A DNA stretch of 64,000 bases, taken from a virus. Where the stretch lies: IMG/VR virus record IMGVR_UViG_3300007640_000027. One strand, 5' to 3'. The notes beneath the pieces were generated by a model. That model was not told where the DNA came from. It was given only the letters and a program-made list of their open reading frames with translations, and did not search any database. A program made the translations under genes and the position numbers. Positions 34,030-64,000 of the stretch are shown in pieces. Position 1 is the first letter of the stretch. Each line of letters begins with the position of its first letter.

Positions 34030-36036
34030 ATGATTGAAGAAATTGATCCAAATCAAAAAAGTGCAAGTTCATCCAAAGACACCTCAGGTTCATCAACTCC
34101 CGTGTTGGATAACTTTTCTCGTGACCTGATCAAATTGGCACAAGAAGGAAAACTTGATCCAGTAATCGGAAGAGAACGTGAAATCAATCGGATTGCGCAA
34201 ATACTCTCACGTCGCAAGAAAAATAACCCCATCATCATCGGAGAACCTGGTGCAGGAAAGACTGCGATTGTGGAAGGACTGGCAATGAAGATATATAATG
34301 GTGATTGTCCGCAAAACTTATGTGATAAGAAAATCGTATCATTGGATATGACTTCAATCGTTGCGGGAACCAAATATCGTGGTCAGTTTGAAGAACGTAT
34401 CAAAGTCATTTTGGAAGAACTTGAAAATAACACAGATATTATTGTGTTTATTGACGAGATTCACACAATGATCGGTGCTGGTAATTCAAGTGGTTCATTG
34501 GATGCGTCCAATATCTTTAAACCCGCTCTTGCTCGTGGAGAACTCCAATGTATCGGAGCAACCACATTGGACGAATACCGTGAGAATATTGAAAAAGACG
34601 GAGCATTGGATCGTCGTTTCCAAAAAGTGATCGTTGATGGTGCAACACCTGAAGAGACAATGGAAATTCTTACAAATCTTAAGGAACGTTATGAAAAACA
34701 CCACAAAGTTTCTTATTCACCTGAATCACTAAAAGCATGTGTATCTCTTGCGGGTCGTTACATCACCGATCGTGAATTCCCTGATAAAGCAATTGATATT
34801 ATGGATGAGGTTGGTGCTCGTTGTCAAATCAATGTGAAGTTACCTGAGATTATTGAAGAACTTAAAGAAAAGGCGGCAGAAATTCGGGAAGAAAAAATCC
34901 AAGTGGTTAAGTCTCAACGATATGAACAAGCAGCACAATTACGAGACAAGGAAAAGAAAATCCTGAAACAACTGGAAGATGAGAAACGCAAGTTTGAAGA
35001 ATCAAAAGACACCGAACGTCATCCTGTGACCGAAGAAATGGTATATGAAGTCGTATCGGTAATGACCAAAATACCTATTTCCAAATTAACCACCGATGAC
35101 AAACAAAGTCTTTTGGATTTGGAATCAAACCTCAATATGAGTGTTATTGGTCAGGAAGATGCGGTCTCCAAAATATCAAAATCAATTCGGAGAAACCGAG
35201 TTGGAATTAAAGACCCAAATCGTCCAATCGGTTCCTTTATCTTCTTGGGTTCAACAGGTATTGGTAAAACTCACTTGGCAAAACAGTTGGCAAAAGAAAT
35301 ATTCGGAGATGAAGATGCATTAATCCGTGTGGATATGTCTGAATATCAAGAAAAACATTCAATGTCCCGATTGATTGGTTCTCCTCCTGGATATGTGGGT
35401 TATGATCAAGGAGGTCAATTGACGGAATCAGTTAAAAACAAACCTTATTCGGTGGTATTATTTGATGAGGTGGAAAAAGCAAACAAGGATATTTTCTCTT
35501 TGTTATTGCAAACAATGGATGATGGATTCTTAACTGATAGCTTTGGTCGGAGAATTAATTTCCGTAACACTTTGATCATTATGACCTCAAATTTGGGTGT
35601 TAAAAAACTTCAAGATTTTGGAACGGGAGTTGGTTTTGCAACCGAAAAACGAGTGTCAAATAATGAAGAAATGAAAAAAGTCCTTCTTCAAAAGGAATTG
35701 AAAAACCATTTCACACCTGAATTTTTGAACCGTGTTGATGAGGTGATTGTGTTTAACCCTCTTAAAGAAGATGAAGTTAAAAAAATCACACAGATTGAAA
35801 TTAACAAATTACTTCAACGTATTGAGGACCTGAATTACAAGATCACAATTTCTGAAGAAGTGGTTACTTATATTTCAGAAGTGGGATTTGATGAGAAATA
35901 TGGTGCACGTCCAATCAAACGAGCAATTCAAGAAAAACTTGAGGACCTAATCTCTGAAAGTATATTGCGTGGAGAAATCAAAGAAGAAACACCGTATAAT
36001 ATGATTTTACAAGATGATGAGATCAAAATACAGTAA
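34030..36036 (+). CDS. clpC: ClpC-type AAA+ ATPase lacking the N-terminal repeat domain
   Basis: [17 protein letters not shown] middle domain (YEQAAQLRD), [11 protein letters not shown] ClpP-docking loop, GARPIKR. Confidence 0.9.
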
Positions 36037-60415: not shown

Positions 60416-61006
60416 ATGTTATTAGATATTTTAACCGCAGCACTTACATTATTCGCCGTAATTGATATGGTCGGAAATATTCCCTTGATTATCAAGTTGA
60501 GAAAAGAACACGGAGAAATCAACTCGTTTCAAGGGACCGTCATATCTGCAACAATTATGATCGCAATATTACTCATCGGTGAAACGTTATTTAAACTGTT
60601 GGGCATTGAAACATTCCATTTCGGTCTGGCAGGTTCCTTCCTTATTTTATATTTTGGAGTGAAAATGGTATTAGGATTAGATGAAAGCAGCAAAAAACAA
60701 AAACAAGCAATCAAAGCAACCATCTTTCCAATCGCATTTCCCTTAATATCAGGACCCGGTACCTTAACCACCATTATGTCCTTACAAGCAGAATTCGGAA
60801 GTTATACGGTCATACCAGCCATATTTATAAACTCATTGGTGATTTATTTGGTCCTGAAATCAGCCTCGTGGATCCAAGATAAAATAGGAATAATGGGGAT
60901 CACCATAATGGAACGAGTTTTTGGAATTATATTGATCGCAATCGGAATGAAAATTTTATTACAAAACTTAATTTTAAGTATAAACTACGCAACCTTACAA
61001 ATTTAA
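60416..61006 (+). CDS. MarC-family membrane protein
   Basis: LFAVIDMVGNIP, FPIAFPLISGPG, ERVFGIIL; six TM segments. Confidence 0.9.
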   Translation: MLLDILTAALTLFAVIDMVGNIPLIIKLRKEHGEINSFQGTVISATIMIAILLIGETLFKLLGIETFHFGLAGSFLILYFGVKMVLGLDESSKKQKQAIKATIFPIAFPLISGPGTLTTIMSLQAEFGSYTVIPAIFINSLVIYLVLKSASWIQDKIGIMGITIMERVFGIILIAIGMKILLQNLILSINYATLQI

Positions 61007-61970: not shown

Positions 61971-62150
61971 ATGACATTACATCAAGAATTTCTTTATGTT
62001 AAGCGAATGATTAACAGTTGCATAACACCCAAACAAAAAGAAACAGCACATGACTGGGCATGGAACTGGTCAAAACTTATGAAGAACAAATATCCTGACT
62101 TAGTAATTTCACAAACCGATTTATTCTTAGATGTGATCGGAAGCGAATAA
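61971..62150 (+). CDS. Hypothetical protein (59 aa; not in ORF track)
   Basis: Hand-translated MTLHQEFLYVKRMINSC...; fills the gap between co-oriented genes. Confidence 0.55.
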   Translation: MTLHQEFLYVKRMINSCITPKQKETAHDWAWNWSKLMKNKYPDLVISQTDLFLDVIGSE

Positions 62151-62153
62151 ATA

Positions 62154-62453
62154 ATGAAAATGAAAGAAGTAAAAATTAAAGGACCAATCACAACAACAGG
62201 ATTTTATGTCACACATGAAAATTCCAACATCAATAAGGATACCGATTTAGGTATATTCCTTAACTGGTTACTCAAACACTATAATACCGCAACTGATGAT
62301 GTGAGCAAGAGTTTTTATTATACCAACTCTCAAAATCAAGAAGTTACCATCGCTGAGATTATAGAACACTTTAACAGAGATAATATGTTGGATTTTTTGA
62401 CAGAACAATCACAAGAGTTAAATTTAGGTTACAATAACACCGAAGAGAGATGA
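62154..62453 (+). CDS. Hypothetical protein
   Basis: ORF track. Confidence 0.55.
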   Translation: MKMKEVKIKGPITTTGFYVTHENSNINKDTDLGIFLNWLLKHYNTATDDVSKSFYYTNSQNQEVTIAEIIEHFNRDNMLDFLTEQSQELNLGYNNTEER

Positions 62454-62641
62454 AAGAAATAATATCTACAACGCCATTTGAGACAACAATTGGATTTTTA
62501 TATTGGCTCAACGAGACTCACAACTTAAGAGGTCTTAAGAATCAGAGTGGGACTATACCGATTGAAGAGTACCCATTAAAGTTACAATCCTTGTTGAAAG
62601 AGTATAACAAGAAATACCCCAATGGGTTAACTGGATGGTAA
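62450..62641 (+). CDS. Hypothetical protein
   Basis: ORF track, coupled. Confidence 0.55.
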   Translation: MKEIISTTPFETTIGFLYWLNETHNLRGLKNQSGTIPIEEYPLKLQSLLKEYNKKYPNGLTGW

Positions 62642-62664
62642 TAAACCTTTAACACCAAAGAGAA

Positions 62665-63021
62665 ATGAACAAACCATATAAAACATATACCATAGAATTT
62701 ACTGATCAACAAGGAAATACCTTCACCGTTGATTGTACAGATAATGTTAATATAAAAACAGAAAGTTTTAATGATGAATGTTTTACATCCATAAAATCTG
62801 AAAAATGGGATGTAGTTAAAACACATATTTTATATTCAACAGAAACTTTCTTACCCATCAAAGATCTTAAAGAAATTGAAAATAAAGATCAAAAATATAC
62901 CCAAAAAGAAAAAGATCTCATTTTTGATGTAATGAGATGGGCTGTCAAAGAAATAACAGGTAGATCATTAAGAGAATCAATAATCGAAATACTAGTTGAA
63001 GACTTTACCAAAGAAATTTGA
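62665..63021 (+). CDS. Hypothetical protein
   Basis: ORF track. Confidence 0.55.
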   Translation: MNKPYKTYTIEFTDQQGNTFTVDCTDNVNIKTESFNDECFTSIKSEKWDVVKTHILYSTETFLPIKDLKEIENKDQKYTQKEKDLIFDVMRWAVKEITGRSLRESIIEILVEDFTKEI

Positions 63022-63047
63022 CATTAAAGAAAACTTTTATATATTTG
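63017..63047 (+). promoter_or_regulatory. Bacteroidota-type primary-sigma promoter (-33 TTTG / -7 TAnnTTTG)
   Basis: TTTG 63017-63020, 19-nt spacer, TATATTTG 63040-63047. Confidence 0.75.
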
Positions 63048-63087
63048 TAACATATTTAATAAAAACACGGAAATACTTTATTTAAAA

Positions 63088-63174
63088 ATGAACAACCGAA
63101 TTAAACATAACATTTGTCTCTCAAACCAAAGATGGTTTAGCTATGTTATGCAAAATACGTTCGGGCACTCATGA
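63088..63174 (+). CDS. Putative attenuator leader peptide (28 aa)
   Basis: MNNRIKHNICLSNQRWFSYVMQNTFGHS*; A-rich start context; contains antiterminator strand GTTCGGGC. Confidence 0.6.
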   Translation: MNNRIKHNICLSNQRWFSYVMQNTFGHS

Positions 63175-63207
63175 TATAGTTAAGACAAACCAAATAACCA
63201 AAATATG

Positions 63208-63237
63208 AAGCCCGAACAGAAATGTTCGGGTTTTTTT
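63208..63237 (+). terminator. Intrinsic terminator (attenuator) upstream of tRNA array
   Basis: CCCGAACA-GAAA-TGTTCGGG followed by T7. Confidence 0.85.
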
Positions 63238-63259
63238 GTTTATATTTGTCCCGTTAAAA

Positions 63260-63271
63260 GTTCTTTGACAT
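63260..63271 (+). promoter_or_regulatory. boxA-like element
   Basis: GTTCTTTGACAT; similar copies at 40305-40316 and 63815-63826. Confidence 0.6.
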
Positions 63272-63286
63272 ATTGGAAGCCAAAAT

Positions 63287-63361
63287 AGTCACGTAGTTCA
63301 GTTGGTTTAGAACGCAACGCTGATACCGTTGAGGTCGCAGGTTCAAGTCCTGCCGTGACTA
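63287..63361 (+). tRNA. tRNA-Ile(GAT)
   Basis: AGTCACG/CGTGACT acceptor; CAACG-CTGATAC-CGTTG anticodon arm. Confidence 0.93.
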
Positions 63362-63367
63362 CTATAT

Positions 63368-63442
63368 GGACTAATAGTTTAACTGGATAAAACACTTGGC
63401 TACGGACCAAGAGATGTCAAGGTTCGAATCCAGTTATCACCA
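63368..63442 (+). pseudogene. Chimeric/degenerate tRNA-Arg(ACG)
   Basis: Good D and anticodon arms (CTTGG-CTACGGA-CCAAG); acceptor and T stems largely unpaired. Confidence 0.65.
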
Positions 63443-63448
63443 CAACAT

Positions 63449-63518
63449 TGCGTGGCTTAGAGGAAAAGAACTTTCTCTCATAAGGAAGGTCAATCGGGTT
63501 CGAACCCCGAACACGCAA
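63449..63518 (+). tRNA. Atypical tRNA-CAT (Met/Ile2) with reduced D-arm
   Basis: TGCGTG/CACGCA acceptor, CTCATAA loop, TCGGG-TTCGAAC-CCCGA T-arm; only about 70 nt. Confidence 0.55.
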
Positions 63519-63523
63519 CATCA

Positions 63524-63610
63524 GGAAGATTGGCTGAGTGGCTTAAAGCGGCACCCTGCTAAGGTGTTGACCTCGCAAGGGGTCCGAAGGTTCGAATCCT
63601 TCATCTTCCG
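63524..63610 (+). tRNA. tRNA-Ser(GCT)
   Basis: GGAAGAT/ATCTTCC-G; GCACC-CTGCTAA-GGTGT; long variable arm. Confidence 0.93.
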
Positions 63611-63667
63611 CAATGTTCAACGAATTGACCCGTTCAGTGACAATGAACACTTAAAAGTATTGAACAT

Positions 63668-63741
63668 TCCCTCTTAACTCAGTTGGCTAGAGTACCACAC
63701 TTTTAATGTGGGAGTCCAGGGTTCGAGTCCCTGAGGGGGAA
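63668..63741 (+). tRNA. tRNA-Lys(TTT)
   Basis: TCCCTCT/AGGGGGA; CCACA-CTTTTAA-TGTGG. Confidence 0.93.
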
Positions 63742-63842
63742 CAAATATTTTTTGATCATACTGTTGTCAGTTAATTATTTTTGACTTACATTTGTATCAC
63801 TGAAAAACAAACAGGTTCTTTGAAATATTAAAATAAAGAAAT

Positions 63843-63928
63843 GGTCGAGTGGTGGAATTGGTAGACACGCCAGACTTAAAATCTTGTGGACAGTAACGTC
63901 CGTGCGGGTTCGATTCCCGCCTCGACTA
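63843..63928 (+). tRNA. tRNA-Leu(TAA)
   Basis: GGTCGAG/CTCGACT-A; CTTAAAA loop; long variable arm. Confidence 0.9.
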
Positions 63929-63941
63929 CTATTAAATGTAT

Positions 63942-64000
63942 GCGCTCGTAGCTCAGCTGGATAGAGCATCTGCCTTCTAAGCAGACGGTCGTAGGTTCGA
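63942..64000 (+). tRNA. tRNA-Arg(TCT), truncated by window end
   Basis: TCTGC-CTTCTAA-GCAGA anticodon arm, GGTTCGA. Confidence 0.88.

Follow-up and report, generated by a model that had tools for sequence, protein, structure and literature searches.

How do phages that carry tRNA genes control their transcription? The control of phage tRNA genes is largely unknown, and the reasons for carrying such genes remain debated, with codon compensation set against escape from tRNA-cleaving defences (PMC10264068, PMC11464382). The question is raised here by a short leader that lies directly before a tRNA array in IMGVR_UViG_3300007640_000027. The stretch analysed (the window) comprises 64,000 nucleotides (nt), and coordinates of the locus are given as positions in the window. 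An earlier note, made from the sequence alone, had proposed that this leader follows the attenuation logic of the trp and his operons. That logic was supported in the current study by a conserved open reading frame (ORF), by a covarying alternative pairing, and by a second leader of the same layout built on a different helix. We describe the parts of the leader, their conservation and covariation, their association with tRNA arrays, and the correspondence of leader codons to the tRNAs that follow. From these features, it is probable that transcription from a strong phage promoter into a block of phage tRNA genes is controlled by an intervening ribosome-mediated (leader-peptide) attenuator.

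Parts of the leader and their alternative pairing

The promoter, ORF, terminator, complementary strand, second promoter box, boxA and tRNAs listed in the earlier note were all found where it had placed them. The features are as follows.

63017..63047, plus strand: promoter P1 of Bacteroidota type (-33 TTTG, 19-nt spacer, -7 box TATATTTG)
63088..63174, plus strand: leader ORF MNNRIKHNICLSNQRWFSYVMQNTFGHS, with ATG start, 28 codons and TGA stop
63106..63150, plus strand: ORF-internal hairpin in the minimum free energy (MFE) fold
63159..63166, plus strand: antiterminator 5' strand GTTCGGGC, within codons 24-27 of the ORF
63210..63237, plus strand: intrinsic terminator GCCCGAACA-GAAA-TGTTCGGG-T7
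63241..63248, plus strand: candidate second promoter P2 (-7 box TATATTTG, without a -33 element), directly past the T-run
63260..63274, plus strand: boxA-like element GTTCTTTGACATATT, a predicted rRNA-type Nus-factor antitermination signal
63287..64000, plus strand: start of the tRNA array, which continues past the end of the window

The terminator consists of a 5' arm (63210-63218), a GAAA loop (63219-63222), a 3' arm (63223-63230) and a T-run (63231-63237), and no other strong terminator-like site was found in the last 10 kb of the window. Its 5' arm is common to two helices, the terminator itself and an antiterminator, with GTTCGGGC (63159-63166) being the exact reverse complement of GCCCGAAC (63210-63217). 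When only the RNA preceding the 3' arm was folded, the antiterminator (GUUCGGGC:GCCCGAAC together with UCAUG:UAUGA) was the MFE fold at -17.8 kcal/mol; the UCAUG:UAUGA extension, seen in the fold of 63150-63222, is the one that the earlier note had anticipated as TCAT/ATGA. For the full segment in the window, the two conformers were nearly equal (-18.7 vs -19.3 kcal/mol), and the whole leader folded with a z of -4.5.

A further hairpin forms inside the ORF, where CAUAACAU (63106-63113) pairs with AUGUUAUG (63143-63150). It is closed by GAAC (63090-63093) with the GUUC that occupies 4 nt from 63159. As the earlier note had suggested for TGGTTT and the upstream AAACCA, AAACCA (63123-63128) pairs with UGGUUU (63133-63138) in the MFE fold. 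RNAalifold analysis of 13 sequences from the window's clade showed three pairs with compensatory changes, while GAAC:GUUC was invariant. This hairpin is a candidate pause or anti-antiterminator (1:2) element, and it could sequester the antiterminator strand as the trp 1:2 helix does.

Relatives of the leader were sought by two scans that relied on different parts of it. In the forward scan of metagenome contigs, the pattern consisted of the terminator core and boxA only, with no requirement for the upstream strand, the ORF or a tRNA; at least 119 loci were recovered from lakes, estuaries and oceans, and nearly all of them had a tRNA within a few tens of bases downstream. In the reverse scan, the pattern consisted of the upstream strand and the terminator, with neither boxA nor tRNA required. 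All 25 matches in viral contigs, many of them from phages of 100-295 kb, ran on into a boxA-like motif and a tRNA array. When the same pattern was applied to one genome for each of 185,579 bacterial and archaeal species, 13 matches were obtained, mostly in Paraburkholderia, none with tRNAs downstream and all unrelated. On this evidence, the leader element appears to be a phage rather than a host feature. The family counts given below (68 and 83 distinct sequences, 56 distinct leaders, and an alignment of 50 sequences) were made among the matches listed.

Several side observations were made during these scans. The Paraburkholderia and Burkholderia genomes (L160-L162, L165, L169-L171) share a conserved CTCCTCCACCCTCCTCC tract followed by a CCCGAAC/GTTCGGG terminator, with no tRNAs downstream, and this looks like a different, unrelated leader element. 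At loci L130 and L138, the leader, terminator and boxA are intact but stand without tRNAs downstream, apparently through loss or replacement of the array. Also, no viral contig matched in exact-word scans for the window's own leader, and in GenBank phages only the tRNAs were matched, the 137-nt switch region alone being without a match.

The alternative pairing was then examined across the family. The upstream region complements the terminator 5' arm over 8-12 bp in 54 of 68 distinct sequences, whereas shuffled upstream sequences mostly reach 4-6 bp. Because the search pattern held the terminator cores fixed, evidence of covariation is confined to the flanks and the upstream strand. There, the base 5' of the upstream core and the base 3' of CCCGAAC, the latter often part of the terminator loop, were A:T in 20, T:A in 5 and G:C in 4 of 38 flank combinations. 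Thus, pairing between the upstream flank and the 5' arm is seen in 29 of 38 combinations; the upstream flank is identical to the 3'-arm flank in only 11 of 38, which argues that the upstream strand is not merely a repeat of the 3' arm. The helix runs 2.74 bp past the core, compared with 1.88 +/- 0.14 bp when arms were permuted among lineages (0/5000 permutations reached the observed value). In the 50-sequence alignment, 96.4% of cells were paired in the terminator and 78.9% in the antiterminator (at most 46.5% when the partner was slid), and the antiterminator showed 25 double-sided changes vs 11.4 +/- 2.5 in shuffles (0/500), although these permutation and covariation counts overstate independence, since the sequences are related. 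The earlier note had proposed looking in relatives for a conserved short ORF and covarying pairs, and both were found. Taken together, these comparisons indicate that the alternative pairing is under selection.

The same phage species also carries a second leader cassette. It lies at positions 3729-3925 of contig L022, approximately 1.5 kb past the end of the window; the first leader of this contig is identical to the window's. In the second cassette, a 22-codon ORF (leader peptide MKTILHITAGTEGDTPRKSEVG) ends in GAGGTGGG and is followed by the terminator CCCACCTT-GAAAA-AGGTGGG-T7, a TATATTTG box, GTTCTTTGACA, and tRNAs for Glu, Thr, Met, Gly, Gly and Asp. The layout is thus the same as in the first cassette, but the helix is entirely different (AGGTGGG/CCCACCT). 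We regard this as the strongest single piece of sequence evidence for the pairing. The AGGTGGG/CCCACCT cassette type recurs in other phages: when viral contigs were searched with its pattern, 7 of 25 matches were leaders followed by tRNAs, the remaining matches being unrelated terminators. Moreover, one viral contig carries both cassette types (loci L189 and L243), and each leader matches its own array.

Closer to the window, only one 90% cluster in a collection of 5.8 billion proteins corresponds to the upstream 118-amino-acid gene. This gene is found on some 22 short contigs from metagenomes, most of them identical to the window across the leader and showing little divergence. The few differences are as follows. 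One variant preserves the ORF despite an in-frame 3-nt insertion and a change of TGA to TAA, and in another the ORF is kept with its stop one codon earlier. In variant L032, the spacer has diverged and the terminator stem carries a compensatory A:U to U:A change; with this diverged spacer, 8 bp still form between the upstream strand and the changed 5' arm.

The leader ORF and its codons

A locus was scored as having a leader ORF when an ATG-initiated ORF of at least 22 codons had its stop beginning 0-15 nt past the upstream strand. Such an ORF was present in 76 of 83 distinct sequences, compared with 5.9% after the flanks were shuffled. ORF length is mostly 22-39 codons in the 56 leaders that have distinct peptides, and in every one (56/56) the stop begins 2-13 nt past the strand; in the window, it begins 6 nt past. 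The reading frame over GTTCGGG varies by lineage, with TTC GGG in the window's group and AGT TCG GGT in others, which indicates that the seven bases are kept as nucleotides, with the ORF kept around them. The peptide sequence itself is poorly conserved between lineages, and its C-terminal residues follow from the RNA helix, which is read in different frames. Clustering of leader peptides at 45% identity merged almost all of them and was not used.

The codons of the leader follow the tRNAs of the array. As the earlier note had reported, the 28-codon leader of the window uses 16 different amino acids without runs, and tandem codon runs were likewise not seen across the family. When array tRNAs were compared with the leader of the same locus, 97% were represented by amino acid and 93% by codon, in comparison with 82% and 74%, respectively, for other leaders (0/20000 permutations); only 7 of 232 cases were found in which an amino acid of the array was absent from its own leader. 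The share of leader codons served by the array was only moderately above the null (0.46 vs 0.39), and the telling measure is the reverse one, the coverage of the array by its leader. For example, a leader containing ...GCDWQQE... precedes tRNAs for Gly, Trp, Cys, Gln, Glu and Asp, and one containing ...TAGTEGDT... precedes tRNAs for Glu, Thr, Met, Gly, Gly and Asp. Within the leader, matched codons concentrate in the stretch 4-12 codons ahead of the antiterminator strand, with a depletion over the strand itself; a ribosome stalled at 4-12 codons upstream would leave the strand free.

In the window, the array contains tRNAs Ile-GAT, Arg-ACG-like and Met-CAT-like (both weak), Ser-GCT, Lys-TTT, Leu-TAA and the start of Arg-TCT. 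Its continuation, taken from contig L022 with the same leader, holds Arg-TCT, Ser-TGA, Tyr-GTA and Asn-GTT, then the second leader cassette and its Glu, Thr, Met, Gly, Gly and Asp tRNAs. The claim of the earlier note that leader codons match anticodons downstream holds for the window, where 9 of the first 10 tRNAs were found to have a cognate codon (tRNA-Leu-TAA is not matched by the Leu codon, CTC), and, at the 93% given above, for the family. The two weak tRNA-like sequences (63368-63442 and 63449-63518; Rfam scores of 29.3 and 23.9 bits, both missed by ARAGORN), which resemble Arg-ACG and Met-CAT, may be degenerate or unusual tRNAs; at the same position, sister contigs L031 and L033 carry well-formed Arg-ACG, Trp and Phe tRNAs.

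These data bear on what the leader would sense. The earlier note had described a general translation-health sensor; the sensing role was supported, but generic sampling was not, since the leader carries cognate codons for nearly every tRNA of its own block. Given this near-complete coverage, the leader most likely senses the supply of its own block's tRNAs. We further put forward, as a tentative proposal, that the leader may act as a checklist with one codon for each tRNA of the block, in which a shortage of any single one (a tRNA that is yet to be made, scarce in the host, or cut by one of its anticodon nucleases) would open the terminator.

Two other explanations can be weighed against the same data. 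In most peptide groups, a Trp lies 10-12 residues before the stop (KWF, KWY, RWF), in a geometry that resembles W12-P24 of TnaC and W155-P166 of SecM. Such a residue could point to an arrest peptide of the TnaC/SecM type, in which a Trp-dependent stall of the nascent chain at the stop codon, perhaps responsive to a small molecule, sets the choice between terminator and antiterminator. However, the Trp of the leader tracks tRNA-Trp in the array: both occur together in 23 leaders, no array with tRNA-Trp follows a Trp-less leader, and all four Trp-less leaders precede arrays without tRNA-Trp, which accounts for the conserved Trp. The same cell (absent from the leader, present in the array) is empty for 14 of 19 other amino acids, with a few cases only for Arg, Met, Glu and Leu, and Ile not judgeable. 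Residues other than Trp are not conserved. The arrest-peptide explanation of the conserved Trp was dropped, and a mechanism of this type is very improbable.

It could also be that the terminator is a leaky or constitutive stop without any sensing, which ends both the upstream plus-strand cluster and the P1 transcript, with GTTCGGGC only tuning a fixed level of readthrough. The terminator does stand at the end of a long run of plus-strand genes, and the more distant relatives L009 and L012 lack a leader ORF and have a plain terminator between the upstream gene and the boxA that precedes tRNA-Leu. A fixed leak, however, needs neither a conserved ORF whose stop falls 2-13 nt past the strand nor a codon content that follows the array, and we consider this explanation quite unlikely.

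The candidate second promoter, boxA and the surroundings of the locus

The earlier note had cautioned that a second promoter box right after the terminator could give basal expression, and P2 (63241-63248) looks real. Of 56 leaders, 39 have a TAnnTTTG box in the stretch from the T-run to boxA, and this box varies only at the nn positions (TATA, TATC, TACC, TAAC, TATT). An arrangement of box and then boxA recurs within the window's array at 63787-63829, where a TACATTTG box and the boxA-like GTTCTTTGAAATATT precede tRNA-Leu. P2 is thus probably a promoter, as judged from its sequence conservation, and part of the window's tRNA expression would then bypass the switch, so that gating there would be partial. 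In the remaining 17 of 56 distinct leaders, no second promoter was found, and 9 of these have only 8-17 nt between the T-run and boxA; the tRNAs of these 17 must be reached by reading through the terminator. As for the first promoter, an exact TAnnTTTG is present upstream of the small ORF in 39 of 56 family members, 35 of which have TTG in the -33 window. In the window, the -33 TTTG of P1 (63017-63020) overlaps the stop codon of the upstream 118-amino-acid gene, and the -7 box (63040-63047) differs among the 22 near-identical contigs only at its two nn positions (TATA, TACA, TACC, TATC).

The presence of P2 raises an alternative in which the leader has nothing to do with the tRNAs: P1, the 28-codon ORF (or a structured small RNA of about 185 nt) and the terminator would form an independent tiny transcription unit with its own role, and the tRNAs would arise only from 63241-63248. 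Retention of the box in 39 of 56 leaders, where only the nn positions vary, and the repeat of box and boxA at 63787-63823, would fit such a unit, as would a terminator that is strong and wins in equilibrium folds, and an ORF region that forms a long conserved hairpin. Moreover, in other bacteria, the RNAs that attenuators release on termination can have functions in trans (PMC6614838). What an independent unit leaves unexplained is the selection for pairing between the upstream strand and the 5' arm, the match of leader codons to the downstream tRNAs, the 17 of 56 members without a second promoter, and the tRNA arrays in 25 of 25 viral contigs; its peptide, in addition, is poorly conserved between lineages. 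We therefore regard an independent unit as unlikely, and an attenuator with partial bypass as the better description of the window.

The boxA call of the earlier note was borne out by a comparison with rRNA operons. Of ten Bacteroidota genomes, sampled from the phylum of a Cytophagales genome, nine carry this 9-mer, as GTTCTTTGA or GATCTTTGA, at 80-155 nt ahead of the 16S gene; in three of them (L211, L212, L215), boxA is then followed by ...ATTG(G)..., as in the phage copies. Several side observations concern the same motif. The same boxA as GTTCTTTGAAATATT also precedes tRNA-Leu-TAA in L009, L012 and L016. At L001 (10650-10790), a gene for a 114-amino-acid protein, instead of tRNAs, comes after a tRNA-like remnant and a boxA-like motif, and in L022 (2497-2535) the same gene follows tRNA-Tyr, after GTTCTTTGGCACATT; boxA-like motifs therefore also precede some protein genes inside arrays.

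The window belongs to an uncultured phage, whose host is taken to be a Flavobacterium-like bacterium, with genes for a major head protein, a portal and a large terminase and a G+C content of about 31%. By its terminase, the closest cultured relative is a Flavobacterium myophage at only 27% identity; in Flavobacterium phage immuto, the nearest cultured phage, three tRNAs were found and a leader of this kind was not. The promoter pattern TTTG-N18-20-TAnnTTTG occurs 9 times in the window vs 2.8 expected, and this excess fits a Bacteroidota host. A gene for a MarC-family membrane protein (PF01914) lies at 60416-61006; genes of this kind, at 60-72% identity, are common to many tRNA-rich viral contigs and usually lie a few kb from tRNA arrays. 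When relatives were sought through the MarC-like gene and a 207-amino-acid gene, the contigs stopped short of the locus or carried tRNA arrays without such a leader. The window also contains a gene for an FtsH-like ATP-dependent protease of 668 amino acids (34030-36036; phrog_4871, E = 1.6e-245). An intergenic motif, TAACACCnAAGAGAnATG, recurs directly before start codons at 62434-62452 and 62643-62667 and in L007, L010, L011 and L015; its copies in distantly related phage contigs are 96% identical, and it may be a shared signal for translation initiation or a promoter. The small genes directly upstream of the leader (62150-62660, compared with L018-L039) are mosaic among otherwise near-identical contigs, the gene at this place encoding 63 amino acids in the window and 102, 108, 37 or 60 elsewhere. 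In the same comparison, the tRNA content of the array varied and the leader was constant.

Proposed mechanism and comparison with known systems

In the proposed mechanism, RNA polymerase would start at P1 and transcribe the 28-codon ORF, whose last codons contain GUUCGGGC, able to pair with the terminator 5' arm made approximately 45 nt later. When the leading ribosome reaches the end of the ORF (the last codons or the stop), it would cover 63159-63166, the terminator hairpin would form, and transcription would stop. When a tRNA for one of the leader codons is scarce, the ribosome would be held at least four codons earlier and the strand would be left free; the free strand would capture the 5' arm before the 3' arm is made, and the polymerase would read on into boxA and the tRNAs. 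BoxA would then probably recruit host Nus factors, which would protect the long, untranslated tRNA transcript from premature termination. With codons in the leader for nearly all tRNAs of the block, such a circuit would respond to any of them, raising tRNA synthesis when one becomes limiting and shutting off once all are plentiful, with P2 probably adding an ungated basal level in the window. That the ORF is translated, that the switch works in this direction, and that Nus factors are loaded is what we infer here.

Several observations weigh against this mechanism. When segments of the full leader were masked, as the earlier note had suggested, equilibrium folds did not switch to the antiterminator and chose the terminator whichever part was masked; the attenuator model thus rests on the order and kinetics of co-transcriptional folding. 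A trp-like 1:2 helix is not clearly conserved across the family, pairing of this type (82% vs 58% in shuffles) being weak and barely above chance. Codon-position periodicity in the ORFs is weak, which is in line with a peptide whose own sequence is unimportant. For six amino acids encoded in the window's leader (Trp, Phe, Val, His, Cys and Gln), the known array of this phage lacks the corresponding tRNAs; such tRNAs are present in sister variants. Furthermore, with a TAnnTTTG box past the terminator in the window and in 39 of 56 relatives, tRNAs could arise without readthrough. To these are added the relatedness of the sequences, noted above, and the GenBank phage search, in which no cultured phage carrying the leader element was found.

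If the mechanism holds, a phage would measure, through a translation-coupled switch, the decoding of exactly those codons that its tRNAs serve and adjust its tRNA output, and both hypotheses on phage tRNAs (codon compensation and defence escape) would become testable with simple reporters. If the checklist proposal also holds, the phage would have closed-loop control of its own tRNA supply and an automatic counter to tRNA-targeting defences, and phages with several blocks would run parallel loops, each with its own helix and leader. Leader-peptide attenuation would be extended to stable RNA genes and to the sensing of many single codons, as well as to Bacteroidota and their phages, in which attenuators have been little studied. 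With at least 119 loci, the family is abundant and offers ample material for covariation and reporter work.

Known families of regulatory RNA were compared first. In Rfam, the window's only non-tRNA match was Leu_leader (RF00512), at 24.4 bits vs a gathering threshold of 50, and tRNA was the sole family matched in the leaders of 14 diverse relatives. For the T-box riboswitch, no match was found in the window region at E up to 1, and none at the gathering score in the 14 relatives. The phage leader, as proposed here, resembles T-box riboswitches in that a decision between terminator and antiterminator reports the status of tRNA. However, in a T-box there is no ORF and a single uncharged tRNA is bound directly; the genes under its control are aminoacyl-tRNA synthetase and amino-acid genes of Firmicutes and Actinobacteria.

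The phage T4 tRNA cluster is similar in that phage-encoded tRNA genes are transcribed as polycistronic precursors; to our knowledge, neither a leader-peptide attenuator nor a boxA has been described for it. Full-text literature searches returned no account of leader-peptide attenuation or boxA before phage or bacterial tRNA operons. The boxA of rRNA operon leaders (and of lambdoid nut sites) is a closer likeness. The phage GTTCTTTGA(C/A)A is the same motif as that upstream of Bacteroidota 16S rRNA, and it likewise follows a promoter and precedes long untranslated, structured RNA genes. In contrast to the rRNA copies, it stands before arrays of tRNAs only, 3-12 nt from a candidate promoter box and behind the proposed attenuator. 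The combination of the switch and an rRNA-type boxA suggests that, for their tRNA operons, these phages make use of the machinery with which the host transcribes its rRNA.

The closest parallel is with the enterobacterial attenuators (the thr leader with Thr/Ile codons, ilvGMEDA with Ile/Leu/Val, trpL and hisL), which share a promoter-proximal short ORF, an intrinsic terminator, and an antiterminator that uses the terminator 5' arm. Regulatory codons are likewise placed such that a stalled ribosome would free the antiterminator strand, and, as in the thr and ilvGMEDA leaders, more than one amino acid could be sensed. Unlike these systems, the genes regulated by the phage leader would be tRNAs rather than biosynthetic enzymes, the antiterminator strand lies inside the ORF before its stop, there is a boxA past the terminator, the carriers are phages of Bacteroidota, and conservation of a 1:2 helix is not clear. 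Moreover, in place of the runs of one codon seen in trpL, hisL, pheL and leuL, the phage leader has roughly one codon for each of up to 15 tRNAs. Taken together, the locus as we read it is a classical mechanism, textbook for amino-acid operons, on a new target and with a new style of sensing.

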